Shown: positions 7,520 through 23,152 of the stretch, in pieces
Numbering within the stretch: position 1 is the stretch's first letter
How the letters are laid out: every line of letters starts with the position of its first letter
Source of the DNA: Nitrospirota bacterium
GTDB taxonomy: Bacteria; Nitrospirota; Nitrospiria; Nitrospirales; Nitrospiraceae
Direction: 5' to 3'
Assembly: GCA_963701855.1 (NCBI GenBank)
Contig: CAVPBK010000005.1
Coordinates: forward strand, 279,729-343,728
DNA: 64,000 bases
The notes under the pieces: generated by a model
Database searches by the model: none
What the model was told of the DNA's origin: nothing
Seen by the model: the letters and a program-made list of their open reading frames with translations, nothing else
Program-made: the position numbers and the translations under genes

Positions 7520-7708
7520 TGCAAACGGATACTAGCACGGGCCTCAACTCTTGAGAAAGCATCTGCGGCTTATATCGTGCACAGAATAGCGGTCTGCCCG
7601 ACGGACGACTGTGAAGAATACCCATCCTTCGAATGCAAGCGCTTCTATGGCTGATGGATGAGCTTGTGTCTCGGAGGGTAGAGAGGTGTACCCGATTCCA
7701 AAGGGGGG

Positions 7709-7751
7709 TTGACATAGATAGGCCAGGACCTGTATTGATACTAATTATCAA
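7709..7751 (+). promoter_or_regulatory. Sigma70-type promoter region with Fur box
   Basis: TTGACA at 7709-7714; TGATACT-A-ATTATCA at 7736-7750 matches 13/14 positions of the Fur 7-1-7 consensus TGATAAT-N-ATTATCA; upstream of the iron-uptake genes; -10 element not clear-cut. Confidence 0.85.
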
Positions 7752-7797
7752 ATTCAGAAATTCGCCGGTACTGCCAGTCACATAAGGCATTCGGCAA

Positions 7798-7860
7798 GAG
7801 GCCAGAGCACTTCGAGTCCAGAGCCCAGGGTCGCCAATCGGCGACTGTGGGCTTTTTTAT
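7798..7860 (+). promoter_or_regulatory. Leader attenuator element L1 (GAG-N-CC boxes plus intrinsic terminator hairpin)
   Basis: GAGGCC-AGAGCA-cttc-GAGTCC-AGAGCC; stem AGCCCAgGGTCGCC / AATC / GGCGACTgTGGGCT followed by T6; homologous to L2 and L3. Confidence 0.8.
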
Positions 7861-7876
7861 TGTGATGAGGGGCGAT

Positions 7877-8935
7877 GTGAACGGGTTCCAAGACAACTCC
7901 CAAATGCTGTTCCGTCTTGATGCGGAGGAATCAAGGCTTCGAGGGGAAAGTGCTGTTGCATGGCAGCAAATCTGTCGGCGGTTTCCGGTTCATAGGCAAC
8001 CGGGGCATGGAGTCATCGTATCGCCATTTCAAGAGCAGTCATCTCCAATTACTCAACAAACAATATTTCGCTCACACAGTAAAGGCAGGGAGCATGCAGG
8101 TAAGCAGAGAAAGCTTCTAGGGTGGAACATATCAGTGTTGCTCCATGGTCTTGTCCTGACTGTTGTGACGGTGCTCAATCTTCACATGACTTCTCCACGA
8201 GTGACGCCACAGAAGGAGGCGTTCCATTGGGATGTGTCGCTCGTTTCGGTCCCCAAGACTGAACCCGTCGTTGCTGATGGAGTGCCGTCGCAAGAGGCTT
8301 TTCAGGCTGAAGAGATCTATCCTGAGGAAACGGGAGTCCGAGAGGTCGACTCATCGACTCAATCAGTAGAGTCGCTGCAGCAGATAGCGATCGTACAGAC
8401 TATGTCATCGCCTGATAGAGCGCATCAACTCTTGTTTCCTCCAGAAAACAGGTCTCAGACGACAGAAGTATCCAGTAGGGCAACAACGATGTCCGTTGCC
8501 AGGCCCGTCGCGTCTATCTTGCCCCCTCCTGAAGTCGAGAACCAGACAGATTCGAAATTATTTCAACTTGAGACGGAATTGGAAAATCCTACTGTGCTGC
8601 AACGCCCCCAAAGCATGACTCGAACTCCATTTAGCAAGACCATTCTCCCCGATTATGCATGGTTGATGGATACGCTACGAACGAAGCTCGAGCGTGTCAA
8701 AACCTATCCAGCATTGGCAAAAGCCAACCATTGGCAGGGGCGTGTGGTCGTTCAGGTCCATATTGAAAGGGATGGCCGCATTGCGAATTCGGAAATCGAA
8801 GAGAGTTCGGGACATGCGGTGTTGGATCGTGCGGCGCTGGAGGCCCTACAAGGCGTGTCGCCATTGATGCTCGCGCATGAACTGAATGGTAGTCCTGTCG
8901 TCATGTTGGTTCCCTTCAACTATCAACTCGAGTAA
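7877..8935 (+). CDS. tonB: TonB-family energy transducer (start uncertain)
   Basis: TM segment with SVLLH motif; C-terminal YPALAK..QGRVVVQVHIERDG..ESSGHAVLDRAAL TonB_C domain. Confidence 0.85.
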   Translation: MNGFQDNSQMLFRLDAEESRLRGESAVAWQQICRRFPVHRQPGHGVIVSPFQEQSSPITQQTIFRSHSKGREHAGKQRKLLGWNISVLLHGLVLTVVTVLNLHMTSPRVTPQKEAFHWDVSLVSVPKTEPVVADGVPSQEAFQAEEIYPEETGVREVDSSTQSVESLQQIAIVQTMSSPDRAHQLLFPPENRSQTTEVSSRATTMSVARPVASILPPPEVENQTDSKLFQLETELENPTVLQRPQSMTRTPFSKTILPDYAWLMDTLRTKLERVKTYPALAKANHWQGRVVVQVHIERDGRIANSEIEESSGHAVLDRAALEALQGVSPLMLAHELNGSPVVMLVPFNYQLE

Positions 8936-8940
8936 ATCTT

Positions 8941-9477
8941 ATGCATGATCAGCGTCTTGTGCTCGAAACCTCGCTCTTTTATCAGTACTCCGGCGAACTG
9001 CTACGATTTCTGACTGCCAAACTAGGTTGCAGAGAACAGGCTGCTGATGTGGTGCAGGACACGTTCGTCCGTATCCGCTGCCTGAAAGATTTGGCAGCCG
9101 TCGACCAGCCGCGCGCATTTCTTTACAAGACTGCGCTAAATCTCACGGTCGATCTGTTTCGACGGCAACGAGTCCGCGCCGAACGGATTGTCCAGCTTGA
9201 GGCGACCGAGGAAGTGCCATCCACGATACCGAGCCAGGACGTCGAGGTCGAGGCAAAAGAGCGTGTTCGACTTCTGTACGACGCGATCGCGGATCTCCCG
9301 CCCAAATGTCGACAGGTCTTTCTGCTCCATAAGTTCATGGATATTTCGCATGCGGAGATCGCCGCTCGTCTCGGGATTTCAAAGAACATGGTGGAAAAGC
9401 ATGTGATGAAAGCCATGTCTCGGTGCCGGGAACGAGTTGAAGGCCTCGGGGACAACGGACACATCGATCCCTCATAG
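8941..9477 (+). CDS. fecI: FecI-like ECF sigma factor
   Basis: AADVVQDTF, PRAFLYKTALNL, LPPKCRQVFLL..SHAEIAARLGISKNMVEKH; adjacent to fecR. Confidence 0.93.
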   Translation: MHDQRLVLETSLFYQYSGELLRFLTAKLGCREQAADVVQDTFVRIRCLKDLAAVDQPRAFLYKTALNLTVDLFRRQRVRAERIVQLEATEEVPSTIPSQDVEVEAKERVRLLYDAIADLPPKCRQVFLLHKFMDISHAEIAARLGISKNMVEKHVMKAMSRCRERVEGLGDNGHIDPS

Positions 9478-9509
9478 AGTGTCACTATATATATCAGCGA
9501 CACACGGAG

Positions 9510-9534
9510 TCAGGTTTCTTCGGACTCTTGCGTC
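9510..9534 (+). promoter_or_regulatory. Putative FecI-type ECF promoter P1 (upstream of fecR)
   Basis: TCAGGTTT-N8-TCTTGCGTC; identical spacing in three copies. Confidence 0.65.
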
Positions 9535-9588
9535 ATACGACAGGGGAGCAGGAACTGGATAGGGTGATCTTTGCTTACAGGTTGAGAA

Positions 9589-10635
9589 GTGAATCGGATG
9601 AAGATCGTGCATGCTGTAACGGACGACCAGTTATCGACGGCTGATCAAGCACTTCGATGGTTCGTGCGGTTTCGGTCCGGCGATGCGACGGTCGCCGATC
9701 GGCGGAAGTTTCAGTCCTGGGTCAGGTCAGACCCGTCTCACCAACAGGAATTCGAGAAGATTTCCAGGCTTTGGATAGACCTTGACGAAACAAAACCGTT
9801 GCTCGCCGATGAGCTGAAGCGTGTCGTTGCCGATGGGAAATCCGAGGCTCATCGATCGCTTGAGAGGCATGCTGGACGATGGAGTACCTATGGACTTTCG
9901 AGCGCACTCGCAGCCTCTCTCATGTTGTTCATCGCAGTAGGCTGGTGGATGGTCGATCGACCAGAGACCGCGGTGTATCGGACTGTCAAGGGCGAACAGC
10001 GAACGGTTGCGCTCCCGGATGGGTCCAGGGTGATCCTGAATACCGATACCGCGGTCACGACGCAATTGTCCTCCTCTCGGAGGGGGGTGATTCTGCACAG
10101 AGGAGAAGCCTTCTTCGTCGTGTCGCATGACAAGCAGAGATCATTCGAGGTGGAGGCGGGCCGCGGAGTAATTCGGGATATCGGCACACAGTTTACCGTC
10201 CGTCGGCAGTTGGAGCAGGTGACGGTGACTGTCGTAGAGGGTGCAGTAGAGGTACAGGGCCTATCGGAAAAAATAGGCATAGCACCAGGGCAGCTTCTGA
10301 CGGCCGGTGACAAGACGTCCTATGGGGCAGATGGCTTCCTCGCTCCAGTCGAAAAGATCGACATTGCCGTATCCACCGCATGGATGGAAGGCAAAGTGCT
10401 GTTCGACCATCGTCCGTTGGCCGAGGTGATTCAGGAAATCGGTCGCTATCAAGAGGGAGAAATACGCGTCCTCGATCCCCGATTGAACGATCTCACAGTC
10501 AGTGGTGTATTTGGCGTCGATGATCGTGACGGGTTTCTGAGGGCACTTGAGACTGCAATTCCTGTGAAATCGACCCGTGTAAACACAAGGTTAGTTGTTT
10601 TGGAGAAGAGCGATTTCCCCTCCCCTCGAAGATGA
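9589..10635 (+). CDS. fecR: FecR-family anti-sigma factor / transmembrane sensor
   Basis: N-terminal QALRWFVR..FQSWVRSDPSH, one TM segment, LPDGSRVILNTDT, IGTQF, AWMEG. Confidence 0.94.
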   Translation: MNRMKIVHAVTDDQLSTADQALRWFVRFRSGDATVADRRKFQSWVRSDPSHQQEFEKISRLWIDLDETKPLLADELKRVVADGKSEAHRSLERHAGRWSTYGLSSALAASLMLFIAVGWWMVDRPETAVYRTVKGEQRTVALPDGSRVILNTDTAVTTQLSSSRRGVILHRGEAFFVVSHDKQRSFEVEAGRGVIRDIGTQFTVRRQLEQVTVTVVEGAVEVQGLSEKIGIAPGQLLTAGDKTSYGADGFLAPVEKIDIAVSTAWMEGKVLFDHRPLAEVIQEIGRYQEGEIRVLDPRLNDLTVSGVFGVDDRDGFLRALETAIPVKSTRVNTRLVVLEKSDFPSPRR

Positions 10636-10657
10636 GGGTTCATCGGTATCATTCGTC
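10633..10657 (+). promoter_or_regulatory. Putative FecI-type ECF promoter P2 (upstream of exbB)
   Basis: TGAGGGTT-N8-TCATTCGTC; 18/25 identical to P1. Confidence 0.6.
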
Positions 10658-10717
10658 CAAGCGTAAGCGGTCGAGGTAATTCGGCCGCCGATTATTCATT
10701 TCATGAGGTGATCGATC

Positions 10718-11143
10718 GTGGAAGCACTGGAACATATGGTGGATTATGGTGTTATTGGATTACTCGTGGGTTTAAGCCTGTGGGCGTTGGCCGTGGCCGT
10801 GGAACGGTGGCTCTTCTATCGGCGAGTCACGTTGAACCAGTTTGACAATGTGCAAAGCATGGAGATCGCGTTGACCAGACGTCTGGTCGTCATTGGGACC
10901 GTCGCGGCCAATGCGCCCTATATCGGATTGCTAGGGACGGTCTTAGGCATCATGTTGACCTTTCATACCATGGGCACTTCGGGCACGATGGCCATGGGGA
11001 CTATCATGGTCGGTCTCAGTTTGGCTCTCAAAGCGACGGCGGTGGGATTGTTGGTGGCGATCCCTTGTGTGGTGCTCAATAACATGCTGCGTCGACGGGT
11101 CTCCGAACTTCTGACACTCTACAGAGTGCAGCATGGAGCGTGA
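10718..11143 (+). CDS. exbB: ExbB, short form
   Basis: ANAPYIGLLGTVLGIM and ALKATAVGLLVAIP MotA/TolQ/ExbB motifs; 141 aa. Confidence 0.92.
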   Translation: MEALEHMVDYGVIGLLVGLSLWALAVAVERWLFYRRVTLNQFDNVQSMEIALTRRLVVIGTVAANAPYIGLLGTVLGIMLTFHTMGTSGTMAMGTIMVGLSLALKATAVGLLVAIPCVVLNNMLRRRVSELLTLYRVQHGA

Positions 11144-11507
11144 GCTCAATCAGATCAATGTCATTCCATTAGTTGATGTCATGCTCGTGCTGTTGGTCAT
11201 TGTCTTGACCACCGCGACCTTTATCTCGACTGGTCAAGTGCCGGTAGAATTGGCCAAGGCGAAAGAAGCCGGCGATCACAAGGACACGCCGTTGGTGATC
11301 ACGCTCACGGCAGATGGGCGGATGTTCATTAACGATCAACCTGTGGGAGACGATGGTTTGAAAACGGTGCTGACGTCGCACCCGAGAGAATCGTTTGTTG
11401 TGGTGCGCGCCGACCGGGTAACGGTGTTGGAACGGTTCGTGGGTGTGGTCGATGAGGTCCGAGGGTTGGGATTTCGGCAGGTGAGTCTCGAGGTGGTTCG
11501 GTCATGA
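11133..11507 (+). CDS. exbD: ExbD biopolymer transport protein
   Basis: INVIPLVDVMLVLL, VVVRAD. Confidence 0.93.
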   Translation: MERELNQINVIPLVDVMLVLLVIVLTTATFISTGQVPVELAKAKEAGDHKDTPLVITLTADGRMFINDQPVGDDGLKTVLTSHPRESFVVVRADRVTVLERFVGVVDEVRGLGFRQVSLEVVRS

Positions 11508-12349
11508 CAGCGGTCGAGATCAGCCAGGTAGCCAGAGGCCGCGAGGCGCATCATGCTCATGGCTGGATAGTTTCGATGCTGTGTCATGTGTTCGGCATCG
11601 GGAGCATTCTCTTGTTCATGGCGGACATCGAACCGCCGGTACTCCCGAACACATTTCAGTGGGAGGTCGCCATGGTGGAAGCTCCGCCGACAGTGGAGCC
11701 GGCGCCTGCTCCACCGACGCCGACCCCCGTTCCTCAGCGCCAGGCTGAACGGTCCTTCGACCCTCGCCATCGTGCTCAAACCGCAGAGATGGTTCCACAA
11801 ACAGTGCACGATATTGTTACTCCGATTGATGCGACGATGGAGCGCGCAATCATACAGACCACGGAAAGCTCGACGGCAGTTACTCAGGCAGTTACCACCA
11901 ATCACGAATCGGTGGCAGAGCAGGCAACCGTCACCTTTATGCAGAACTTGAGACAGGTGGAATTGGTAGAGCGAGAATCTCCTGCTTCCGACCCTCAATT
12001 ATCCGCGATCGAGCATCGAGTCGTCCAACATCGGTTAGTGAAGGTTCGTGAGACGCAAGCCGACTATGGCTGGCTTCGGGATGCGCTCTGGGGTCGCATC
12101 CATGAGCTGAAGCGCTATCCATCGCTAGCCAAGGAGAACCATTGGGAAGGGAAGGTTGTGGTGCAAGCGGTAATTCGCGCCGACGGTACAATCGTCGATT
12201 GTGAAGTTGCAGAAAGTTCTGGCCGGGCGATCCTGGATCAGGAGGCCCTGGCGGTTATGAGAAAAACCTCGCCGTTGATTCTCAAGCATCCGTTGGGGAA
12301 GCCGAGTATTACGCTACTTATTCCGATCACCTACAAGTTGGACGGCTAG
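11504..12349 (+). CDS. tonB: TonB energy transducer (second paralog)
   Basis: SMLCH TM motif, Pro-rich linker, YPSLAK..EGKVVVQ..ESSGRAILDQEAL. Confidence 0.9.
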   Translation: MTAVEISQVARGREAHHAHGWIVSMLCHVFGIGSILLFMADIEPPVLPNTFQWEVAMVEAPPTVEPAPAPPTPTPVPQRQAERSFDPRHRAQTAEMVPQTVHDIVTPIDATMERAIIQTTESSTAVTQAVTTNHESVAEQATVTFMQNLRQVELVERESPASDPQLSAIEHRVVQHRLVKVRETQADYGWLRDALWGRIHELKRYPSLAKENHWEGKVVVQAVIRADGTIVDCEVAESSGRAILDQEALAVMRKTSPLILKHPLGKPSITLLIPITYKLDG

Positions 12350-12430
12350 CATCAAGGCCCCGCCTGGGTCACGGTGATCGTAGAGGAGGAGAATACATTA
12401 CGTGACTGAACGATAAACAGGAGAATCATC

Positions 12431-12889
12431 ATGATGAATTACTCGATGATCCGGCGCATATCCACGTTGTGCCGCGTGCTATGTGTGATGTTGGCATGTT
12501 CTGTGATTGGAAGTTCTGTCTGGGCGCAAACCAAGACTGACAAAGTCTTCCATGCCGTGGCGATGGATGCCAAGGGGGTCGAAACGGACATGAAGAACGT
12601 CATGTTCTATTGGGAGGAAAAAATCAGTGAGACGGCCTTCGTGCCGCACGAAGGCCGCGAAGTACCGGTCAAGCGCGGCACGGCCACGGTCAAGATCAAA
12701 TTCGAGGCTATTAACCACATCGATCTCAAACCTTCCGGGAACGGCGCTCTGCCGAACGTCACGATTACACTCAATGACGGCAAGACGGGAGACTTCGTCC
12801 TCGCCATCGCGGGCAGTTTCAAAGGGCAATCAGACTTCGGAGAGGTTGAGCTGCCGGCAACTGAACTGAGGAAGCTCAGCTTTAGATAG
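12431..12889 (+). CDS. Hypothetical exported protein
   Basis: SD AGGAG, signal peptide ending VWA-Q, beta-rich mature part. Confidence 0.75.
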   Translation: MMNYSMIRRISTLCRVLCVMLACSVIGSSVWAQTKTDKVFHAVAMDAKGVETDMKNVMFYWEEKISETAFVPHEGREVPVKRGTATVKIKFEAINHIDLKPSGNGALPNVTITLNDGKTGDFVLAIAGSFKGQSDFGEVELPATELRKLSFR

Positions 12890-13033
12890 CGCCGCAAGCC
12901 ATGCGACGTCGGGTAGACCCTCGCGGACGTTCATGCGCTTCTCAATTTCGGCTTTCCCTGACTCTGAAGCTGAACCGGTTTGGTGTCCCTGTCCCAGGCC
13001 ATCACCAGCTGGCTATCTTTTCCGACGGAGAAG

Positions 13034-13058
13034 TCAGGTTTTTCAATTCTCATGCGTC
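13034..13058 (+). promoter_or_regulatory. Putative FecI-type ECF promoter P3 (upstream of the Com-like gene and receptor)
   Basis: TCAGGTTT-N8-TCATGCGTC. Confidence 0.65.
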
Positions 13059-13139
13059 AAACCTATCGTGGATGGGATTCGGCCTCTGTGCTCTCGTTGA
13101 GCAGGACGATAAATTTTTCTCCAGGGGCCAGGGGGGGCA

Positions 13140-13328
13140 ATGAGTGAACAGCGTGCGTCGGCGCCGGCTGCCATGGATGTTCGATGTCGCTGTGGCAGGC
13201 TGATTGCTCGATGGGAAGGACACAGTCTTGTCATCAAGTGCACTCGATGCGGGCGTTTCGTACAGATTCACTCTTCGGCCATCAGTGGAACGCCACCTCC
13301 TGATCTGAGATCAGGGTCCCACCGGTAA
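13140..13328 (+). CDS. Small zinc-ribbon protein resembling phage Mu Com (alternative start 13173)
   Basis: DVRCRCGRLIARWEGHSLVIKCTRCGRFVQI fits the Com pattern (I/V)RC..C.(K/R)L(L/I)....(I/L).I(K/R)C.RC; first knuckle is CxC rather than CxxC. Confidence 0.75.
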   Translation: MSEQRASAPAAMDVRCRCGRLIARWEGHSLVIKCTRCGRFVQIHSSAISGTPPPDLRSGSHR

Positions 13329-13358
13329 TCCCGTCCACAGACAGGCGTTTGTCCGCAC

Positions 13359-13422
13359 GAGGCCAACGGAACTTGAGTCCAGAGCCCACGGCTGCTTAGG
13401 CAGCCGTGGGCTCTGTTGTTTT
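13359..13422 (+). promoter_or_regulatory. Leader attenuator element L2
   Basis: GAGGCC..GAGTCC-AGAGCC with the same 16-nt spacing as L1; perfect 16-bp stem 13380-13395/13400-13415 followed by TTGTTTT. Confidence 0.8.
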
Positions 13423-13468
13423 CTAGAGGCAATGAGAACAAGTCAGTGCTGAGAAAGGAATAACGGCG

Positions 13469-15946
13469 ATGACATGGCGCGAGATGGGAATTGGGTTGGG
13501 AGTGTTCGTATTGTTGATCGTATTGGCGTTCGTGGTGACACATTCTGCGTTTGCGCAGTCGGATGCGGTGACCGTCACCATTCCACCTCAAGAGTTGTCG
13601 ACAGCGCTGACGGCATTGGCCGAACAGACGAATCTGCAAGTACTCTATGCATCGGAACTTGCGAGCGGGAAAATGACGAAAGGAGTCGCCGGCACGGTCA
13701 CCGCGCAGGAGGCTATCCAACAGCTGATAGAAGGCACCGGTCTGGCCTATACGTTTACCGACGCCAAGACCGTGACGCTTCAGGCTGCGACACCGGCTGT
13801 GATGATCCCGGGCAATCTCTCTGCTCAGCCGGAACTCGGGACGATCAAACAGAAACCGATTAAAGTTCCAGAAGTTGTGGTGAAAGACGTCAGGACGCGC
13901 AGCTACACCGCCGATGAGGCCTCCAGCGCCACCAGGATTCCGATTCCCATTGAAGACGTTCCACGCTCTGTTGAGACCGTCACACGACAAGTAATTGATG
14001 ACCAGAAAGTCATTCGTATGAGCGACGCGCTTCGGAATGTGAGCGGAACCTCTATGCCAAGTACACAGGGCGGCCGAGGCGGCGACTTCATGATCCGGGG
14101 TTTTCGGTCTGATCTGAACGTGTTCAAGAACGGCTTTCGGGAAGATAGTACGTTCGCTGCCCGGGCTGCACGGGACATCGCGAACCTCCAGAATATCGAA
14201 GTCGTGAAGGGACCACCTTCCTATCTCTATGGCCGAGCCGACCCGGGCGGTGTGATCAACCAGATTACCAAGGACCCGCTCCGAACACCCTACTACTCGG
14301 GTGAAATGATCTTTGGAAGCTACAACCTCTACCGGCCGACCATTGATATCGGCGGTCCGCTCAACGACAGCAGAACACTGACGTACCGGCTCAACGGCGT
14401 CTATGAGTCAGCCGAGAGCTATCGCGAAGGGGTTAAGAGCGAACGGGTATTCCTTGCGCCGACATTTGGTTGGGAAGCGACCTCACGGGACACATTTCGG
14501 CTTGAGCTCGAGTATCTCTATGATCGGTCCCCCATCGATCGAGGTCTGGTCGCAGTGGGAAGCGGTCCGGCGAATATTCCGATCGGCCGGTTTCTTGGAG
14601 ACCCCACGAAGCGAGGAGAGATCAATCAGGGGAAGGCGACGTTGCAGTATCTTCATCAGTTCAACGAGATGTGGAAATGGCGAACCGCTGTGCGTATGGC
14701 CGTCACATCGGAAACCTATAACAGTCTCGAATCCTGGTTCATGGATGATGCAACAGGGAATCTCAGTTTGGCGGCGTTTCACATTCCATCGCTCGTACAA
14801 AGCAATTATATGCAGAATGAGGTACACGGTCTGTTTTCGACCGGGTCGGTGAAGCACAAGCTCTTAGCGGGTGTCGAGCTGGGATGGGAGTATTCGAAGC
14901 AGCAAGTACTTTCCGACTCTTTCGACTTCGCCAATTTGAACACCATCAATATTTATAATCCCTCCTATTCTTTTCACAATAACCGCTTGGACTCACAGTT
15001 TAACGGCACAACTAAAAACCAGATCGTGGGTGTCTATGCCGGCGATCAAATCAATCTGCTTGAGAACTTAAAGATGAATGTGGGTGGCCGGTTCGATTAC
15101 TTCCATCAGAAGCAGGAGCTGAACCCCAATTCGTTCGATTCAACAAGCAGCACGGACGGACAGACCAAGAATGCCTTCAGTCCGTCGATCGGGATCGTCT
15201 ATCAACCGATCAAGCCGATCTCGTTGTTCGCCGATTTTACCCAGTCATTCGCCCCGCAATCTTCCATATCGCGAAGTGTCACCGGCCAAATATTCGAACC
15301 TGAGCGGGGACAGCAGGTCGAGGGAGGTATTAAATTTCAAGCGTACGAAGGAAAATTGCGGGCTACGATGGCCGTGTTTGAAATCAAAAAGAAGCACGTG
15401 CTCACCGCCGACGTCAGCCAAGGGCCGGGGTCCGGATTCTCCATCGCCACCGGAGAACAACGCAGCAAAGGCTTTGAATTCGACATTGCAGGACAGGTCC
15501 ATCCAGGATTAGAGATCATCGGCAACTATGCCTACATCGATGCGCGCGTCACCCAAGACAATCTATTTGCCATTGGCAGCCGCCTGCCGAATGTTCCTTT
15601 GAACCAAGGGAGTATCTGGGCCAAGTATGTCTTTCAAGAGGGTGTCGTGAAAGGGTTCGGAGCCGGGCTGGGAATGTACGCGCAAAGTAATCGTCAAGGT
15701 ATTTTCCAGTGTCAGGATCCGATCCAGTGTCAGGCACCCTTCAATTTAGCTGGTTTCGTGCGCATGGATGGGGCGTTGTACTATTACAAACCGGAGGTAT
15801 TTTCAGGAAGCAATCTGCTCGCGTCGTTGAACTTCACGAATCTACTGGATCAGCGCTACATGACCGGGGCGCAAAACTTCCGTGAAATTATCTACACCGG
15901 CGCACCATTGACGGTGATTGGTTCGCTGAAACTGGAGTTCAATTAG
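13469..15946 (+). CDS. TonB-dependent siderophore receptor with N-terminal STN signalling domain
   Basis: IPPQELSTALTALAEQTNLQV (STN), plug motifs FMIRGF and IEVVKGPPSYLYG..PGGVIN, C-terminal NLLDQRY..LKLEFN. Confidence 0.95.
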   Translation: MTWREMGIGLGVFVLLIVLAFVVTHSAFAQSDAVTVTIPPQELSTALTALAEQTNLQVLYASELASGKMTKGVAGTVTAQEAIQQLIEGTGLAYTFTDAKTVTLQAATPAVMIPGNLSAQPELGTIKQKPIKVPEVVVKDVRTRSYTADEASSATRIPIPIEDVPRSVETVTRQVIDDQKVIRMSDALRNVSGTSMPSTQGGRGGDFMIRGFRSDLNVFKNGFREDSTFAARAARDIANLQNIEVVKGPPSYLYGRADPGGVINQITKDPLRTPYYSGEMIFGSYNLYRPTIDIGGPLNDSRTLTYRLNGVYESAESYREGVKSERVFLAPTFGWEATSRDTFRLELEYLYDRSPIDRGLVAVGSGPANIPIGRFLGDPTKRGEINQGKATLQYLHQFNEMWKWRTAVRMAVTSETYNSLESWFMDDATGNLSLAAFHIPSLVQSNYMQNEVHGLFSTGSVKHKLLAGVELGWEYSKQQVLSDSFDFANLNTINIYNPSYSFHNNRLDSQFNGTTKNQIVGVYAGDQINLLENLKMNVGGRFDYFHQKQELNPNSFDSTSSTDGQTKNAFSPSIGIVYQPIKPISLFADFTQSFAPQSSISRSVTGQIFEPERGQQVEGGIKFQAYEGKLRATMAVFEIKKKHVLTADVSQGPGSGFSIATGEQRSKGFEFDIAGQVHPGLEIIGNYAYIDARVTQDNLFAIGSRLPNVPLNQGSIWAKYVFQEGVVKGFGAGLGMYAQSNRQGIFQCQDPIQCQAPFNLAGFVRMDGALYYYKPEVFSGSNLLASLNFTNLLDQRYMTGAQNFREIIYTGAPLTVIGSLKLEFN

Positions 15947-15991
15947 ATGTGCCGGGAAGGTTGCGCAGCCCGGTCTTGGTTGGGCTAGGCC

Positions 15992-17146
15992 GTGAACCGC
16001 ATGCCTTGGCAGAAGCTGTGGCTGCGGGTTCATTGGTGGCTCGGTCTCTTTGCCGGGGCGATGTTTGTTTTCATCGGGCTCACCGGAAGCACCTTGGTGT
16101 TCTATCAGGTTCTCGATGTATGGCTGAATCCGGAGCGACTCACGACAGGGGGTCGAGGAAGCTATCGTTCGTTTGATGAGATGGCGACGGCAGCTCGAAT
16201 GGCGCGGCCCGATGTGCCAGGACCCTATGTCCTCTTGTTGCCGTCCGATACCCAGGGCGTGGTGGTTGCCTGGTTCAAGAAGTCTACTGGCGAGCAGGGG
16301 CGCGCCCAGGAGATCGAAGTTGCGATCGATCCGTACAGTTCAAGAGTTTTGAGCAAGGATCGTATGTGGGGCAGCACCCCGGTCTCGTTTGTCTACGAAT
16401 TTCACCAAGCCCTGCTACTGGAAACGGTTGGGGAAACCATTCTCGGTTTCTTCGCCTTCTTCCTGTTGTTGTCGGTTTCCACAGGTCTCTACCTCTGGTG
16501 GCCAAAGCCGGGAAGAATTCGAGAAGCGTTTACGATCAAGTCTGATGGGAGCCGTCTCCGGAGCCTGTATGACCTGCATAAGCTCAGCGGGATTTCGGGC
16601 GCGCTGATTCTGCTTGTTCTCGCTTCAACGGGCCTATATCTGGAGTTTCCCGCATACGTCAGCCCACTGGTCGGGTCGATTTCGCCATTTCCCGAAGAGC
16701 CTGTATTGCGTTCGAACGCAGGTTCGGAGAGACGATCTATTCCGATCGATCGGGCCGTCACGATCGCCCAGTCTATCTTTCCATCCGGTGAACTGAAGTG
16801 GGTCGGGTTGCCGCAACAGCGCGATGACGTCTACCAGATCGGTCTGCGTCAATCCGAGGAGGTTCGGCGTTCGAGTGGCGAAAGCATTGTTTGGCTGGAT
16901 CAGTATAGCGGTGAGGTTTTACATACGCGCGACTGGAATCGACTTACTGGCGGAGAAACGTTCCTTGCCTGGCTGTTTCCCTTGCACAACGGCGAAGCGT
17001 TCGGACTAATAGGGCGATGGATCGTGTTCGTGACTGGATTTATTCCCTCCGTGCTCTATGCCACCGCGCTTCGGATGTGGTGGTTGAAGCGAAAGGCGCA
17101 TATGCGGCGAAAAGCGAGTGTCGACTCCTCACCTGCGAACGCCTGA
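15992..17146 (+). CDS. PepSY-associated TM protein (FoxB/PiuB-like candidate ferric-siderophore reductase)
   Basis: RVHWWLGL, GLTG, IDPYS, EFHQALL, GLYLWWP, YDLHKLSG, PLHNG. Confidence 0.9.
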   Translation: MNRMPWQKLWLRVHWWLGLFAGAMFVFIGLTGSTLVFYQVLDVWLNPERLTTGGRGSYRSFDEMATAARMARPDVPGPYVLLLPSDTQGVVVAWFKKSTGEQGRAQEIEVAIDPYSSRVLSKDRMWGSTPVSFVYEFHQALLLETVGETILGFFAFFLLLSVSTGLYLWWPKPGRIREAFTIKSDGSRLRSLYDLHKLSGISGALILLVLASTGLYLEFPAYVSPLVGSISPFPEEPVLRSNAGSERRSIPIDRAVTIAQSIFPSGELKWVGLPQQRDDVYQIGLRQSEEVRRSSGESIVWLDQYSGEVLHTRDWNRLTGGETFLAWLFPLHNGEAFGLIGRWIVFVTGFIPSVLYATALRMWWLKRKAHMRRKASVDSSPANA

Positions 17147-17325
17147 TATTCCCATGAGTTACGTTTTCCCGCCCATCCGGCATGGGATCTATCTTTTCGG
17201 CAAGGATTCAACCCTGGCGCGGTGTCTAGAGGAGGAGTTACACCACATGAGGTTATTTCTAGTTCATACGTCACATCTATATGGGTGGGTTGAGGGAAGA
17301 TGGCGGCTGCGCTGAATGTTCTTCT

Positions 17326-18393
17326 ATGAACAAAAAGAAGATTTCAATCGTTCTGGCGGTATTCGCAGTGATCGTCATTCTGATGATCAAGCTGTGGGAT
17401 CGACCGACAAGCGGGTCGGCTGTGTTCACAGAATCGGCCGAAGGGCCCATGTTGGTGGATGTTTCACCGGTTATGGTCGGCTCGATTACTGAATCAATTC
17501 AGGCAGTCGGTACGCTGCAGGCTATTGCCTCGATCATGATTAGGCCGGAAATTGCCGGGATAGTTCGCCGGATCCATTTTGCTGATGGGCAATTCGTCGA
17601 ACGAACAGTTCCTCTCGTCGAAATGGATCCGGAGGAACTTCAGGCACAAGCCAATCAAGCCGCAGCTCAAGAAAAAATGACGCAAGTCACATACGAACGT
17701 CTCAAGCGGCTCGCTGCTCAACAGACGACGATTGTGCCCACTCAGCAAGTCGATGAAGCCAGGTTAGCCCTCCAAGCCGCCGCCGCCAATACGGTGCTGT
17801 ATGCCACGCGCTTGAAGAAAACCATCATCCGTGCTCCGTTCAGCGGCACGGTGGGTTTTCGTCGAGTGTCGGTCGGGGATTACATGCAACCAGGACAGGA
17901 TATTGTGAATCTCGAAGATCTGAGCACCCTTCACGTGGACTTCAAGGTGCCCGAGGTGTGGCTCAGTCAGCTCTTCGTGGACCAACGTTTGATCGTCACG
18001 ACCGATGCGTTTCCCAATGTCTCGTTTGAAGGATGTGTATCGGCGATCGATCCGCGGATCGATTCGGTCAATCGAACGGTCGCCGTTCGTGCGGCGGTTC
18101 CCAACCCCGAAGGAACACTTCGTCCCGGTCTCTTCGCGACGGTTCGGTTGACGCACGGACAGGATACTCACGCCCTGCTAATCCCGGAAGAGGCGGTGTT
18201 TCTGCAACGGGACAAGGTCATGGTATTTCGCGTGGAGGATCAAACTGCCCGGTTGACGGAGATCGCGGTCGGCGCGCGCGAACGGGGGATGGTCCAGGTG
18301 CGCACCGGTTTGAAGGAAGGCGATCATGTCGTACGTACCGGCACGCATAAGGTGCGCGAAGGTCTCCGGGTTTCCGTCAAGTCATCTCAGTAA
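17326..18393 (+). CDS. RND efflux membrane fusion protein
   Basis: N-terminal TM, IRPEIAGIV, IRAPFSGTVG, LRPGLFA, LLIPEEAV. Confidence 0.92.
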   Translation: MNKKKISIVLAVFAVIVILMIKLWDRPTSGSAVFTESAEGPMLVDVSPVMVGSITESIQAVGTLQAIASIMIRPEIAGIVRRIHFADGQFVERTVPLVEMDPEELQAQANQAAAQEKMTQVTYERLKRLAAQQTTIVPTQQVDEARLALQAAAANTVLYATRLKKTIIRAPFSGTVGFRRVSVGDYMQPGQDIVNLEDLSTLHVDFKVPEVWLSQLFVDQRLIVTTDAFPNVSFEGCVSAIDPRIDSVNRTVAVRAAVPNPEGTLRPGLFATVRLTHGQDTHALLIPEEAVFLQRDKVMVFRVEDQTARLTEIAVGARERGMVQVRTGLKEGDHVVRTGTHKVREGLRVSVKSSQ

Positions 18394-18450
18394 GAAAGGC
18401 TCACCCGTTCGCATGCTCAGCTTCAACACACATTTCTTCCGGCTATCAGT

Positions 18451-21400
18451 ATGAAGCTGTCAGAGACATCAATCCATCGCCCTGTGTTTGCCATCGTACT
18501 GACGCTGTTGCTGGTCCTGTTCGGTGGGCTGAGCTTCACGCGTCTTTCCGTGCACGAATATCCCGATATCAAACCTCCGATTGTCTCGGTACGCACGGTG
18601 TACCTTGGAGCCAGTGCGTCCGTGATCGAAACGGATGTGACCACTCCCATCGAGGATGCGCTCAGCGGGATACAGGGGCTGAGAACCATCACGTCTGCGA
18701 GTCGGGAAGAAGCCTCATCGGTGACCCTGGAGTTCGATCTGGGTCGTGATTTGGACGGCGCTACAAACGACGTACGGGATCGAGTCGCATTGACTCGCGC
18801 GCTGTTGCCGCTGGGGATTCAAGAGCCCATCGTATCTAAGGCCGCATCGGACAATACCGAAGTGATGTGGATGGCGCTGTCCAGCGTCCGTCATTCAGAA
18901 TTGGAACTTTCGGATGTCGCCGATCGTTTTATCAAAGTCCGCATGGCCATGGTTTCGGGAGTTTCGAGCGCGTATTTGGACGGGGAACGTCGGTACGCGA
19001 TGCGAATATGGTTGGACCCCGATCGTCTCGCTGCACGCCGCTTAACCGTCCAGGATGTCGAAGAGGCGATTCGAAACCAGAATGCTTCGATCCCTGCGGG
19101 ACGGATCGAAAGCGATCAAATGGAATTCGGCGTATCGCTCAGGGGGACGTTGCATACCCCGGAGCAATTCGAGCAACTTATCATTGCCACCCGCGAAGGC
19201 TATCCCGTTCGGTTACGCGATGTCGCTCGAGTCGAACTCGGAGCTGAAGATTCCCGCAAGCTCGGCCGTCTGAACGGTACCTCGTCGATCGGCATCGGCG
19301 TCTCGAAGCAATCCAAAGCCAATCCCTTGGCCGTCGCCCGCACGCTCAAAGAGCAGCTCCCTGGCATTGCCGCCGGTTTGCCGGAAGGGATGAACCTGAC
19401 AATTGCCTGGGATAGTTCGACTCCGATCGAACGGTCGTTGCACGAGGTCTATGTGGCGTTGGGGCTGTCGCTGGTGCTTGTCGTGGTCGTGATTTTTGGC
19501 TTTTTGGGCAACGCCAGGGCCACGCTTGTGCCGGCCGTTGCGATTCCTGCTTCGATCATCGGGACCTTCACGGTCATGGCCGTCACGGGGTGCTCTCTGA
19601 ACGTGCTGACGTTACTCGGACTCGTTCTGGCTGTGGGGTTGGTGGTCGATGATGCCATCATCGTGCTTGAAAATATCCATCGACGGATTGCCGACGGGAT
19701 GCCGCCATTGCAGGCGGCTGCCGAAGGCACGAAAGAAATTTCGTTTGCTGTAGTGGCGACGACGATCTCACTCGTGACCGTGTTCGTCCCGATCACGTTT
19801 CTAAGCGGCCTCGTTGGGCGCCTCTTTGCCGAATTGGCCATCGCGGTGGCCTCGGCCGTGCTGCTGTCCGGTTTTGTCGCGCTGACGCTGACGCCGATGA
19901 TGTGCGGATACTTGCTTCGTCCTGAAACGAAGCAGTCGACCTGGAACCGGTTGGCTGCGCGAGCGTCGGAGCGTCTCGCCGCCGTCTATCGGCGCGCACT
20001 GGTATGGACCATGGAGGCGAAGGTCATGGTCGTGATCTTGGCCATAGGCGCGAGTCTGGGAAGTTTGGTTGTCCTGAAACATCTGCCGTCCGAACTGGCC
20101 CCGCATGAAGACGCAGGATGGTTCTCAGGGTTTCTCACGGCTCCACAAGGCGCGACCATTCGCTACACCGACACCTATGCCCGAGAGTTGGAATCGTTAA
20201 TCCAATCCGTTCCGGAGGTCTCGATGCTCTATACGGTTGTGGCGCGAGGAGAGCGCCCTACGATCGTCAATCGGGCTGCGAGTTGGGTGACGCTACGGGA
20301 TTGGAATGATCGGACTAGGAGCCAACAGGAGATTGTCGCTGCACTGAATCGAGATCTTGGCAGACTGACCGGCGTAAAGGCGTATTTGCTGAATCCATCT
20401 CCCATCGAAGAATGGTCGGAGAAAACTCCCGTACAGTTCGTGATTGGGGGCTTGGAGTATCAGGAGTTGCAAAAGGTTGCCGAAGGGTTGCTTGCGAAGC
20501 TGGCGGCTCATCCGGGATTTGTAACGCCGGATATGGACTTAGCGCAGAATACTCCGCATGTCGTCGTTGATACGCATCGGGAGAAAGCCGCGGACCTTGG
20601 GGTATCGGTTGTCACCATCGGGCGTACGCTTCAAACGTTGCTCAGCGGGAGTCCGGTCAACACATTCGCGCGAAACGGGCGCCAGTATAACGTGATCGTC
20701 AAGGTCGACGATCAACGTCGCGAAAAGCCGTCCGACATCAGCGCGCTCTATGTGAGAGGGAAAGAAGGAGTATTGGCTCAGCTGAGCAATCTCGTGACCG
20801 TGCGGGAGGAGCCCGCGCCCGAATCATTGCATCATGTCGATCGTATGCGCGCGGTGACGATCAGCGCAGGGTTGACTGAGGGGTTTACCCTCGGGCAAGC
20901 GTTAGCCTATCTCGATCAAACGGTTCACGAGATGCTCCTTCCGAACATGCGGACAAGCTACGCGGGAGAATCGAAAACCTTCGTGGAAAGCAATGCGAAT
21001 CTGTACATGACCTTCGCACTTGCGCTGGCGGTGATCTTTCTAGTTCTCTCCGCCCAATTCGAAAGTTTCCGGCATCCCTTCACGATTCTCTTGGCAGTGC
21101 CTCCGGCTGTCTCAGGAGCGGTACTCGCGCTGACTATTACTCGAGGCACACTGACGATCTATAGCCAAATCGGGTTGGTGATCTTGATCGGACTTGCCAC
21201 GAAGAACGCCATTTTGATCGTGGAGTTTGCCAATCAACTTCGGGATCGAGGCGTGGATCTGGTGGATGCCGTGATCGAGGCAGCGACATTGCGGCTGCGA
21301 CCGATTCTCATGACAACCTGCGCCACGATTCTGGGCACCCTTCCGCTTGTGTTCGCGACCGGCGCCGGCGCTGCCAGCCGACGACAAATTGGAATCGTGT

Positions 21401-21513
21401 TGGTTGGGGGGCTGGTCGTTTCGACCCTGGTCACGCTTTTTCTCGTTCCGGCTGCGTATGCGATCCTGTCAAGCCGTAGAGAGAGACCGAAACTTCCGCA
21501 ATCATTGAATTAG
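18451..21513 (+). CDS. RND efflux permease (AcrB/AcrD/AcrF family)
   Basis: 1020 aa; intact proton-relay motifs VVDDAIIVLENI, TKNAILIVEFA, RLRPILMTT. Confidence 0.95.
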   Translation: MKLSETSIHRPVFAIVLTLLLVLFGGLSFTRLSVHEYPDIKPPIVSVRTVYLGASASVIETDVTTPIEDALSGIQGLRTITSASREEASSVTLEFDLGRDLDGATNDVRDRVALTRALLPLGIQEPIVSKAASDNTEVMWMALSSVRHSELELSDVADRFIKVRMAMVSGVSSAYLDGERRYAMRIWLDPDRLAARRLTVQDVEEAIRNQNASIPAGRIESDQMEFGVSLRGTLHTPEQFEQLIIATREGYPVRLRDVARVELGAEDSRKLGRLNGTSSIGIGVSKQSKANPLAVARTLKEQLPGIAAGLPEGMNLTIAWDSSTPIERSLHEVYVALGLSLVLVVVVIFGFLGNARATLVPAVAIPASIIGTFTVMAVTGCSLNVLTLLGLVLAVGLVVDDAIIVLENIHRRIADGMPPLQAAAEGTKEISFAVVATTISLVTVFVPITFLSGLVGRLFAELAIAVASAVLLSGFVALTLTPMMCGYLLRPETKQSTWNRLAARASERLAAVYRRALVWTMEAKVMVVILAIGASLGSLVVLKHLPSELAPHEDAGWFSGFLTAPQGATIRYTDTYARELESLIQSVPEVSMLYTVVARGERPTIVNRAASWVTLRDWNDRTRSQQEIVAALNRDLGRLTGVKAYLLNPSPIEEWSEKTPVQFVIGGLEYQELQKVAEGLLAKLAAHPGFVTPDMDLAQNTPHVVVDTHREKAADLGVSVVTIGRTLQTLLSGSPVNTFARNGRQYNVIVKVDDQRREKPSDISALYVRGKEGVLAQLSNLVTVREEPAPESLHHVDRMRAVTISAGLTEGFTLGQALAYLDQTVHEMLLPNMRTSYAGESKTFVESNANLYMTFALALAVIFLVLSAQFESFRHPFTILLAVPPAVSGAVLALTITRGTLTIYSQIGLVILIGLATKNAILIVEFANQLRDRGVDLVDAVIEAATLRLRPILMTTCATILGTLPLVFATGAGAASRRQIGIVLVGGLVVSTLVTLFLVPAAYAILSSRRERPKLPQSLN

Positions 21514-21596
21514 CCAAATCGACATCGTGAAGGATACGGACGGAGCTATCGAGCTTCGTCACTTCGGTCAGATGTTACGAAAACTCGCATTTGAAT

Positions 21597-21623
21597 GCCC
21601 CGCCCGGAAGGGCGGGGTTCTTT
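21597..21623 (+). terminator. Intrinsic terminator after the RND operon
   Basis: GCCCCGCCC-GGAA-GGGCGGGGT followed by TCTTT. Confidence 0.75.
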
Positions 21624-21724
21624 ACTCACCCGCGGTACTTACGAGGCCTCGCGAATCCCCACTTGGTTTTTCAGTTTCTTCCAGCAATCCGTAAAATAAA
21701 TAAGTTGTGTGGGCGGTATAGGGC

Positions 21725-21759
21725 TTGCCATGCAAATTATTATATGATATTGTTTCTCA
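21725..21759 (+). promoter_or_regulatory. Sigma70 promoter overlapped by a Fur-like box
   Basis: TTGCCA-17 nt-TATTGT with TG extension; TGATATT-G-TTTCTCA at 21745-21759 matches 11/14 of the Fur consensus; upstream of bfd. Confidence 0.65.
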
Positions 21760-21805
21760 ATATCAGACAGTGCAACGCTCTTCCGAGCGCCGATACATAG
21801 CAGCT

Positions 21806-21866
21806 GAGGCCAGAGTCATTCAGGACGGAGCCCAAGGTCATCGCAAGTGGCCGTGGGCTTTTTTAT
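21806..21866 (+). promoter_or_regulatory. Leader attenuator element L3
   Basis: GAGGCC-AGAGTC..GGAGCCCA; stem AGCCCAaGGTCA..TGGCCgTGGGCT followed by T6AT, the same tail as L1. Confidence 0.78.
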
Positions 21867-21958
21867 TGGTGCAGGGACAAGAAGATTCCGGAATCTGTGG
21901 GACTGATGCGAGGCAAACGAGATCATCGGATAGACCCAATTCAGGGAGGGCTCAGCGG

Positions 21959-22139
21959 ATGTATATCTGTCTGTGCAAAGGGATCAAGAAGGATGAGCTC
22001 TGTGAAATCGTGGCACGGCATCGGGCTGTCCTCAAGCAGTGAAATCAGCCATGGGGCGGGATGAGTCTTTTGCGGTCGATGCGAGCAGAAATTGGAATCC
22101 ATGATTTATCACGTTTCAGCAAGTCTGCTGAACGATTGA
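21959..22139 (+). pseudogene. bfd: Bacterioferritin-associated ferredoxin with two single-base deletions
   Basis: MYICLCKGI start; adding one base near 22023 and one near 22069 gives a 60-aa protein with CxC..MG..CGRC. Confidence 0.75.
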
Positions 22140-22153
22140 ATAAGGAGCTGAAG

Positions 22154-22351
22154 GTGGCTCAACAGATGAAAGGATGGGCGATGACTGGATCGTGTCGGAA
22201 GTGCGGTGGTTTCCTGATCGTGGAGCGAGTGCTCGATTACCATAGCTCGACGGACGGTATGAAATGCATCAACTGTGGGTGGCGCCGCCGGGATGTTCAG
22301 CCGTCTTTCGGTCCCCCAGATGGCGTGAGGAATCGGGGCGCGCGCAAGTGA
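22154..22351 (+). CDS. Small CxxC..CxxC zinc-ribbon protein (start GTG 22154 or ATG 22181)
   Basis: CRKCGGFLIVE..MKCINCGW; SD AAGGAG before the GTG. Confidence 0.65.
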   Translation: MAQQMKGWAMTGSCRKCGGFLIVERVLDYHSSTDGMKCINCGWRRRDVQPSFGPPDGVRNRGARK

Positions 22352-22375
22352 CCTTTTCAGCAAAGGAGAACCGAG

Positions 22376-22885
22376 ATGAAACGAAACGGGATGCACGCAT
22401 TGGACTTTCATGGTACGGCGCTGGTCGGAGGAGACCTCACCTATTTGAATGGCACGCGTTATATGAATCGGGTCGTGGCGCTCTGTTTTTTGCCCTACGT
22501 CAGCCTTCTTTCGGCCGGCGAGATCGACCGGCATGCTGCGCGCTTCGACAAGGTCGGCGCAACCCTTCTGATCGTTAGCTCAAGTGCACGCCCCCTGCAT
22601 CGATTGTGGATCGGGCATCGGGACAAGCCGAACACGCCGGTTTTAGAGGATCTCTGTTGCCGGCTCCATCGGTTATTCGGCGTGCCGGGAAGAATGCGGT
22701 CGGCACGCTGCCACACATTCATGATCGACCGGAAGGGCATTCTCCGGTTACGTGTCGCGCATGATTTTGTCGATCGAGACATGGAGATGCTTCGTAAGAT
22801 TGTCAGATTAACCGACCTCCGCAGGGCCAACGCGGAGCCCGATCACGAGGTGATTCCGAACAAGGCGGACTATGTGTCCGTGTAA
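22376..22885 (+). CDS. AhpC/TSA peroxiredoxin-like protein lacking the peroxidatic motif
   Basis: Aligns by eye with AhpC (ALDFHGTALVGG, HRLWI, PVLED, TFMIDRKGILR) but PxxxTxxC is absent. Confidence 0.7.
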   Translation: MKRNGMHALDFHGTALVGGDLTYLNGTRYMNRVVALCFLPYVSLLSAGEIDRHAARFDKVGATLLIVSSSARPLHRLWIGHRDKPNTPVLEDLCCRLHRLFGVPGRMRSARCHTFMIDRKGILRLRVAHDFVDRDMEMLRKIVRLTDLRRANAEPDHEVIPNKADYVSV

Positions 22886-22933
22886 ATCAAATCATTTGTC
22901 AGGGGAATCTATTACATCAAGGAGACGTGAACC

Positions 22934-23152
22934 ATGGAAAATGTTCTATCAAGTGAGATGCAATCGAAGGTGGCGTTCTGCGGATGCGGGAAGCGCCTCT
23001 TTACCTATGGCCCTCTGACGCTACATTTCGACAGAGTCGAGTTTTTGGCGTTTGCGGATTCGGTTGGCCGACTTGGGGCACTCGTCAGACAAGCCGCCAA
23101 AGATTCGTCAACCGTATCGAGGCATGTTACCAACGCTGCCGGCTGCCACTAG
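22934..23152 (+). CDS. Small hypothetical protein with a CxC motif
   Basis: SD AAGGAG; FCGCGKRLFTYGPLTLHFDRVEF. Confidence 0.65.
   Translation: MENVLSSEMQSKVAFCGCGKRLFTYGPLTLHFDRVEFLAFADSVGRLGALVRQAAKDSSTVSRHVTNAAGCH

Follow-up and report, generated by a model that had tools for sequence, protein, structure and literature searches.

A Com-like zinc-ribbon protein and a family of candidate Com-responsive RNA sites in the iron loci of Nitrospiraceae

The 64,000-nucleotide (nt) stretch of DNA analysed here (the window; Nitrospirota bacterium, GenBank assembly GCA_963701855.1, contig CAVPBK010000005.1, positions 279,729 to 343,728) carries three homologous elements, L1, L2 and L3, in which a pair of short sequence boxes runs into the base of a terminator hairpin ahead of iron genes. 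Across two families the element is tightly linked to genes for a small Com-like zinc-ribbon protein. We propose that L1-L3 are members of a group of RNA sites, spread across Nitrospiraceae, that respond to this protein, which would bind the boxes and open inhibitory helices, giving terminator read-through at some sites and activating translation at others; we put the probability of this reading at about 0.55. The motif and com, together in iron loci, look like an undescribed RNA-level switch added to control by the iron repressor. A sequence-only reading of the window had suggested a regulon of this kind and is partly supported: the motif, its conservation, the linkage to com, the Fur-like boxes and the geometry are all there, and binding and anti-termination, with read-through as the direction of the effect, are what we infer from them, at slightly better than even odds. 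The principal Com-like gene and the commonest copy of the element lie on another contig, outside the view of that earlier reading.

Elements L1, L2 and L3 and their relatives

The three elements begin with GAGGCC at 7798, 13359 and 21806 on the + strand, and the positions and sequences first assigned to them from the window are confirmed. Aligned with one another, they share a mean column identity of 77% over 74 columns, and a 30-nt degenerate pattern drawn from them found 0 matches in 100 shuffles of the window. Their parts are as follows, with scores from R1, a covariance model built from L1-L3.

7798..7858, + strand: element L1, 84.7 bits, with orthologues in 4 other species; box 1 GCCAGAG at 7801-7807, box 2 GAGTCCAGAGCCC at 7814-7826, terminator hairpin at 7820-7855, T run at 7853-7858
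13359..13424, + strand: element L2, 83.6 bits; variant box 1 GCCAACG at 13362-13368, box 2 GAGTCCAGAGCCC at 13375-13387, perfect 16-bp hairpin at 13380-13415, then a U-rich tail
21806..21864, + strand: element L3, 77.8 bits, with orthologues; box 1 GCCAGAG at 21809-21815, variant box 2 GGACGGAGCCC at 21823-21833, terminator hairpin at about 21827-21862, T run at 21859-21864

Predicted folds close each element with a long hairpin and a T run, and both the folds and the pairing in homologues place a G+C-rich hairpin directly 5' of a U run, as expected of an intrinsic terminator. A simple terminator scan listed L2 alone, having missed L1 and L3 because of an internal stem mismatch. Anatomy and pair counts were taken from a family alignment of 59 model matches, 58 of them distinct. 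Each element runs from box 1 (GCCAGAG) through a short segment able to form a 3-4 bp hairpin to box 2, (C)CAGAG, which continues into AGCCCA(A/G)G; the upper stem and loop that come next are variable, and CTTGGGCT and the U run complete the element. Spelled out, the boxes read GAG-G-CC-A-GAG ... GAG-T-CC-A-GAG-C-CC. Across the 58 distinct homologues, 97.1% of cells in the terminator pairing are paired. Lower-stem pairs stay the same in 57-58 of the 58 rows, and changes on both sides are found in 7 of 14 pairs, in the upper stem only, which upholds the earlier description of an invariant lower stem beneath a covarying upper one. Box 2 contributes its GAG to pairing with the opening residues of the U run (alignment pairs 30-33 with 81-84), and the boxes and the 5' base of the terminator stem share nucleotides, matching the claim that they run into the 5' arm of the terminator. 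Bases paired in the small hairpin between the boxes vary by subtype (GGU/ACC, GUC/GAC, GGAC/GUCC and GAC/GUC, compared by eye and with register shifts between subtypes), a suggestion that this pairing is real.

For none of the three leaders does the minimum-energy or centroid fold contain a competing anti-terminator structure. A riboswitch, or any switch made of RNA alone, was considered and rejected, as the folds show no alternative pairing; Rfam returned no match, to a known riboswitch or otherwise, at gathering score in the window or at E values up to 1 over four loci. A look for RNA sequencing runs that cover 7600-17500 of the window returned none. Upstream of the boxes, L1-type leaders (7765-7797 in the window, and orthologues) carry a 5' hairpin, GCCGG...UCGGC, with a compensatory form, ACCGA...UCGGU, in genome G029, and at the matching place in L3-type leaders there is a hairpin whose sequence varies.

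R1 was run on the window's own genome (4.3 Mb), on 61 relatives and on 151 genomes from across the phylum. The own genome yielded L1-L3 at 78-85 bits and a fourth full-length copy at 33 bits (G000:C6:197176-197243), on a contig other than the window's; the remaining matches were only reverse-strand echoes of the palindromic stems. All four copies sit in iron loci, and a dispersed repeat, which the earlier reading had named as grounds for refutation, was rejected with only 4 copies in 4.3 Mb. The element occurs in 36 of the 61 relatives, including 26 of 36 genomes of the own genus, 8 of 9 of g2, a genus of a sister family, and the single genome of g9; R1 found none in families f3 and f4 among the relatives sampled. 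Over the phylum sample it was detected in 26 of 151 genomes, with 17 of 18 in family f1, 5 of 7 in f2 and three weak matches elsewhere. Genomes of the family that are complete in a single contig are among those with the element, and a cultured Nitrospira therefore probably carries it. Box and lower-stem sequences are invariant across two families, and the upper stem drifts.

Loose box-pair patterns brought no further sites to light in the own genome, where their matches were not enriched over reversed-sequence controls (41 against 43, and 35 against 34). The only convincing sites there are the four terminator-type copies and one site after com, described below. The same loose search returned two near-identical stretches about 7.4 kb apart (G000:C6:1566383 and 1573793), starting CACCAGAGCCAGATGCACAGACAGAG, that seem unrelated to the element.

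The Com-like protein and the box site after its gene

The Com-like proteins are 57-74 amino acids (aa) long, with four cysteines invariant in 11 aligned members. A profile of these 11, compared with Com of phage Mu (AF083977) in hhalign, gave a probability of 92.4% and an E value of 5.3e-7 over 29 columns that cover both cysteine pairs, and it is because of this comparison that we consider the family probably homologous to Mu Com. Some database records label close relatives 'phage FluMu protein Com'. A search for relatives of solved structure returned none for the Com-like protein (best E 0.42) and none for Mu Com. The own genome has a main gene and, in the window, a paralogue whose place just ahead of L2 had been correctly noted before.

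G000:C6:193580-193935 (L039:6581-6935): com, the main gene of the genome, 59 aa, with the box site following it; the com stop overlaps an ATG (ATGA), and a Fur-like box lies on the promoter
13140..13328, + strand: com2, a 62-aa Com-like zinc-ribbon gene with CxC...CxxC, scoring 23.7 bits against a cut-off of 22.9 for PF10122; its stop lies 30 nt before L2

In vitro selection with Mu Com gave the motif NGAGNNCC(N)2-3GAGNNCCNN, and the protein is described as binding CC(N)2-3GAG in a hairpin that adjoins a translation inhibition structure, weakly when the motif is in duplex and preferentially when it is not (PMC6483171). The GAG..CC-like site that the sequence-only reading had given for Mu Com agrees with this motif.

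A search with the com2 protein found a Com-like gene in 46 of the 61 relatives. Among the 36 genomes with the element, 34 have such a gene and 2 have none; in the 25 without it the numbers are 12 and 13. The link to the zinc-ribbon gene, which the earlier reading had proposed to test by co-occurrence, is real. One of the two element-positive genomes without a match is only 82% complete. The other is G046, a complete genome in which com is frameshifted as assembled, being split over two frames (L069:1900-2100), and in which the operon and the element are retained. Coordinates compared by hand, allowing 5 kb upstream or adjoining, show that 28 of the 36 genomes with the element have the two on one strand of one contig, the Com-like gene some 3.4-3.6 kb before an element or immediately next to one. 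The relatives are not independent, so that such counts overstate the support and show a conserved arrangement, not a statistical association. Most of the other 8 genomes are fragmented assemblies.

Direct adjacency takes more than one form. A Com-like gene lies immediately 5' of the element in the window and in G027, G029, G011 and G023, and immediately 3' of it in G032 and G010; in two further species the com2 orthologue is likewise followed at once by the element. In G010 (L065:8600-8770) the second Com-like frame, right after the element, has CxC in both knuckles and no clear in-frame start, and may be decaying. All three L2-type copies (13362-13368 in the window, L052:9572 and L055:7279) carry GCCAACG in box 1 in place of GCCAGAG, and each is preceded by the divergent com2 paralogue. 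It may be that com2-type proteins and GCCAACG-type sites are co-diverging, on the evidence of three species.

Between the com stop and the start of a gene for a 548-aa porin-like protein lies a box module without a terminator, GGCCAGAGACCATCGAGTCCCGAG in the own genome (from L039:6838). A strict pattern for this site matched 78 of 80 Nitrospira loci, which had been fetched by protein similarity, and the other 2 carry single-base variants visible by eye. The site is also found in families f2 and f3. Genus g2 has GAGGACC-GGCA-GAGTCCCC, in tandem with a second copy and with boxes spelled GAG-GA-CC-GGCA-GAG-TC-CC, and f3 has GAGGACCCCGAGTCCC. The box region can pair, in each of the families, with codons ~7-12 of the gene after it, and a helix formed in this way would enclose the ribosome-binding site and the AUG. 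Pairing between the box region and the first codons of the next gene was compared with 2000 shuffles at each locus, counting those that reached the observed duplex energy.

Family f3, two loci: 0 and 0 of 2000 shuffles; fold z -3.1 and -5.9
Genus g2, two loci: 1 and 0 of 2000 shuffles; fold z -4.0
Own genus, own locus and second locus: 28 and 228 of 2000 shuffles; fold z -0.26 and -0.49

Column-wise covariation for this helix at the porin start was not obtainable across families; the three families use different registers, and the pairing is therefore maintained without it. We regard the site after com as the strongest support for a link between the Com-like protein and the boxes, and support of an independent kind.

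This site bears directly on a plainer explanation, that the elements are ordinary intrinsic terminators copied along with iron genes, their flank a hitch-hiker or the site of some other factor and its likeness to the Com motif due to chance. The failure of loose box-pair patterns to exceed their reversed controls would fit, as would box spacers that differ from the Mu motif and an L1-type copy in G028 followed by genes of the L3 type, which hints at recombination between copies. A mere terminator would not, however, be expected to keep box and lower-stem sequence across two families while its upper stem drifts, nor would its flank recur, free of any terminator, right after com in 80 of 80 loci. 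With all four copies of the genome in iron loci and Com paralogues directly beside copies in several species, we consider this explanation very improbable.

Promoters, the fourth copy and a proposed mechanism

Fur boxes were scored as matches out of 19 to the classical 19-nt consensus. By this measure, only two places in the 64-kb window reach at least 14/19, and they lie on the promoters of L1 and L3, in keeping with the earlier statement that these two elements follow Fur-boxed promoters.

7709..7755, + strand: L1 promoter-like site, TTGACA at 7709-7714, an 18-nt spacer and TATTGA at 7733-7738
7731-7749 and 7737-7755, + strand: L1 Fur-box-like 19-mers, each 14/19
21725..21764, + strand: L3 promoter-like site from a promoter scan, TTGCCA, a 17-nt spacer and TATTGT
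21746-21764, + strand: L3 Fur-box-like palindrome, 15/19

No Fur-like site was found at L2, where the best match is 10/19. Promoter, box and element are kept jointly for L1 in four other species and for L3 in several more. The com promoter, which heads the operon of the fourth copy, carries GATATTAATAATCGTTCTC (15/19), a site that hardly varies across the genus and also occurs in family f3.

The fourth copy is the commonest type of the element. It lies about 24 nt past the stop of a gene for a 170-172-aa protein with four transmembrane segments (4-TM), at the end of a conserved operon that comprises com, the 548-aa porin-like gene, a lipoprotein, a flavin mononucleotide (FMN)-binding protein and the 4-TM protein; an ApbE gene, ExbBD-TonB, a ferric-type ABC transporter and ferritin make up the neighbourhood. 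Of the 80 Nitrospira loci, 64 contain the end of the 4-TM gene and at least 150 nt beyond it. The element was called, with an HD-GYP-type gene downstream on the same strand, at 48 of these 64, and neither is present at 12, where the next gene is convergent in the cases read. Three loci have the element without the HD gene, a box site and a paralogue of the 548-aa porin-like gene coming next, and one has the HD gene without an element call, a divergent sub-threshold element being visible by eye. The ribosome-binding site of the HD gene abuts the U run of the fourth copy and thus leaves no room for a promoter between element and gene. Judged by this layout, the fourth copy in Nitrospira acts like a leader for the gene that follows and, like L1 and L3, is placed between a promoter and same-strand genes. 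At loci L147, L149 and L164 (~8540-8800 in each), a terminator-type element is followed ~70 nt later by the box site GGCCAGAGGCCTCAGCGCCCCGAGTC and then by the porin-like paralogue; the two types of site are therefore in tandem there.

We propose a model where a Com homologue is made from a promoter that is preceded by a Fur box and heads an iron-uptake operon, with com2 as its paralogue in the window. The protein would bind a single-stranded module consisting of GCCAGAG, a 3-4 bp hairpin and then (C)CAGAG or CCGAG, and at every site this module would form or abut the 5' strand of an inhibitory helix. In one version of the helix the boxes would pair with the first porin-like codons and enclose the ribosome-binding site, a Mu-like inhibition of translation, and binding would free that ribosome-binding site. 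In the other version, at L1-L3 and the fourth copy, the helix would be the base of the intrinsic terminator. Bound protein would keep the bottom AGAG:CUYU pairs open, and RNA polymerase would read through into tonB-fecIR-exbBD at L1, a FecA-like receptor gene at L2, the bfd cluster at L3 and the HD-GYP gene at the fourth copy. Provided that binding is to single strands, as with Mu Com, occupation of the boxes and closure of the stem base would exclude one another, so that termination would fall. Fur-like boxes on the com, L1 and L3 promoters would make this a feed-forward gate, in which Fur derepression raises Com and Com in turn allows read-through. As a tentative extension, with odds a little short of even, we suggest that Nitrospiraceae have domesticated a Mu-type Com as a second layer of the iron regulon, with Fur setting the level of a protein that opens both kinds of helix and with pairs of com2 and GCCAACG diverging from the rest.

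Several observations weigh against this model, beyond the dependence among relatives that inflates the linkage counts. At least 4 loci of genus g2 have the element last in the operon, with a convergent glnD-like gene opposite; it does not stand between a promoter and same-strand genes there and cannot be a leader, as no gene on the sense strand is available for read-through. The relationship of the protein to Com is distant, with only 2 of the 11 aligned members reaching PF10122 at E 0.01 and a first knuckle that is CxC in the Com-like family against CxxC in Mu Com. Element spacers are shorter than those of the Mu motif at most sites, with CC-N1-GAG against CC-N2-3-GAG. The helix that would inhibit translation is not statistically stable in the own genus (z -0.26 and -0.49, with 228 of 2000 shuffles at the second locus), and it is invariant within the genus and kept across families by register shift. 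Finally, the promoters of L1 and L3 would give RNAs of ~100 nt, which suit a small RNA equally well.

That last point opens an alternative in which the elements are small RNAs and not attenuators, L1 and L3 as free-standing, Fur-repressed transcripts of ~100 nt and the fourth and g2 copies as products of 3' untranslated regions. Their action would be in trans, the CCAGAG boxes serving either for base-pairing or as a decoy that titrates the Com-like protein as CsrB does CsrA. L1 and L3 fit, each with a strong terminator and, 45-55 nt upstream, a promoter bearing a Fur-like box, yet L2 and the fourth copy lie 30 and ~24 nt past a stop codon, with no room for a promoter of their own. The g2 element, ending its operon before a convergent gene, likewise fits an RNA from a 3' untranslated region; the Nitrospira fourth copy, in contrast, tracks the HD gene (present with it at 48 and absent without it at 12 of 64 loci), whose ribosome-binding site abuts the U run. 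Lower stem and flank are invariant in sequence and not only in pairing, as in protein-bound small RNAs, and the 5' hairpin of L1-type leaders shows compensatory changes. The boxes, however, hold GAGG-like sequence and no anti-Shine-Dalgarno sequence, and no small-RNA family in Rfam matches. On balance we hold a small-RNA role to be unlikely.

The g2 arrangement can also be accommodated if the Com-like protein does bind the boxes but acts on the fate of the RNA, stabilising or destabilising the mRNA of its own operon and the leader RNAs in a form of autoregulation, or enhancing termination. The evidence that ties the protein to the boxes serves this explanation as well as it serves our model, the commonest copy marks the 3' end of the protein-encoding operon in both families, and in g2 nothing follows on the sense strand. 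Against this, the boxes after com supply the 5' strand of a helix in which a ribosome-binding site is hidden, and a Mu-like geometry predicts opening of that helix and not its stabilisation. Nor does an effect on RNA fate explain why Nitrospira loci without the HD gene are free of the element, or why elements precede tonB, a receptor gene and bfd. We find it quite improbable, and retain the model of box binding with read-through and translation activation.

The genes that this model would place under L1-L3 in the window are listed here, with Pfam assignments where domains are named.

7865..13143, + strand: genes after L1, a TonB-like gene, an extracytoplasmic function (ECF) sigma factor of the FecI type, FecR, ExbB, ExbD, a second TonB and two unassigned open reading frames (ORFs)
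13469..21513, + strand: genes after L2, a TonB-dependent receptor with STN, a PepSY_TM protein, an RND adaptor and an RND pump
21597-21618, + strand: terminator of the L2 operon, from the terminator scan, after the RND pump
21960..22042, + strand: bfd-like small ORF after L3, 27 aa as assembled, with a start kept in orthologues

The FecA-like receptor after L2 has STN, Plug and barrel domains and starts at ATG 13469, about 46 nt from the element. The earlier statement that each element lies just before the first gene it would control is true only in a loose sense: beside the ~46 nt at L2, L3 is ~95 nt from the bfd-like ATG, and for the TonB-like gene after L1 the start codon is uncertain. The distance from the U run to the bfd start is only ~45-50 nt in two L3-type orthologues. 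The bfd-like ORF has no Pfam match and is followed by a peroxiredoxin-like gene. It stops at 27 codons in the window, and its orthologues in G023 and G027 continue through a CPQ motif; alignment suggests a one-base difference, and the early stop could come from a frameshift, mark a pseudogene or reflect an assembly error.

On contig C56 of G028 (locus L014), an L1-type element lies by tatD and is followed by a helix-turn-helix gene like the one after L3 (compared with 7798-23913 of the window). Recombination between copies of the element may have added or removed the ~14-kb block, from tonB to the RND genes, that separates L1 from L3. At the far end of the window lies a complete rRNA operon (16S, two tRNAs, 23S and 5S; 58499-63796).

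Meaning and comparison with known systems

Work on Com has so far treated it as a curiosity of phages, with a single gene to activate. The sequences presented here make a Com homologue appear to regulate iron acquisition throughout a lineage, that of the main nitrite-oxidising bacteria, with well-defined candidate RNA sites and two modes of output on one recognition module. If the model is right, this would be the first Com-type anti-termination system, and anti-termination in bacteria would gain a new class of protein; the control that Fur exerts over TonB systems, receptors and the mobilisation of stored iron would gain a feed-forward layer. In the literature covered, which did not extend to subscription journals, we found nothing on Com-type control of iron genes or of terminators, and the earlier impression that Com-type anti-termination had not been described in an iron regulon agrees with that search. 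The system is compact, a protein of ~60 aa and an RNA of ~35 nt, and is amenable to work in vitro without Nitrospira genetics.

In anti-termination of the BglG/SacY-RAT, ANTAR and HutP types, an RNA-binding protein on a site that overlaps the 5' arm of a terminator, between promoter and genes, permits read-through. The Com-like protein is proposed to work alike, with an unrelated fold. Unlike the RAT and ANTAR types, the elements have no alternative anti-terminator hairpin in their predicted folds, and for this reason we do not class them in those families, though they may still act similarly. The Com-like protein is, in addition, no sensor-domain protein; the level of protein set by Fur would be the signal.

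RyhB and PrrF are Fur-repressed small RNAs. L1 and L3 resemble them: each has a strong terminator, a promoter with a Fur-like box and a predicted transcript length of ~100 nt, and they are paralogous copies in iron loci. They differ in that Rfam gives no match, no anti-Shine-Dalgarno seed is present, 2 of the 4 copies lack a promoter of their own, and the copies are coupled to downstream genes and to com.

Host-encoded Com-like genes are known from Pseudomonas, where PF10122 genes lie directly before chromosomal cargo (L-type bacteriocins and levansucrase) and their regulatory role is called unexplored in a review (PMC6240691). The arrangement of a small Com-like gene directly before chromosomal cargo is common to both cases. 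Lineage and cargo are different, no iron link exists there, and the passages on these genes describe no RNA site or terminator.

The closest likeness is to com-mom of phage Mu. Both have a zinc-ribbon protein of ~60 aa encoded directly upstream of its target, with co-transcription inferred here, and both have alternating GAG and CC boxes beside an inhibitory helix or on its 5' strand; the box site between com and the porin-like gene mirrors the com-mom layout. In contrast to com of Mu, the gene described here is chromosomal and outside any prophage, has a Fur-like box upstream and heads an iron-uptake operon. At L1-L3 and the fourth copy, moreover, the helix assigned an inhibitory role is an intrinsic terminator and not a start-codon helix, so that one kind of protein would serve the Mu-like site after com and a second kind of site at terminators.

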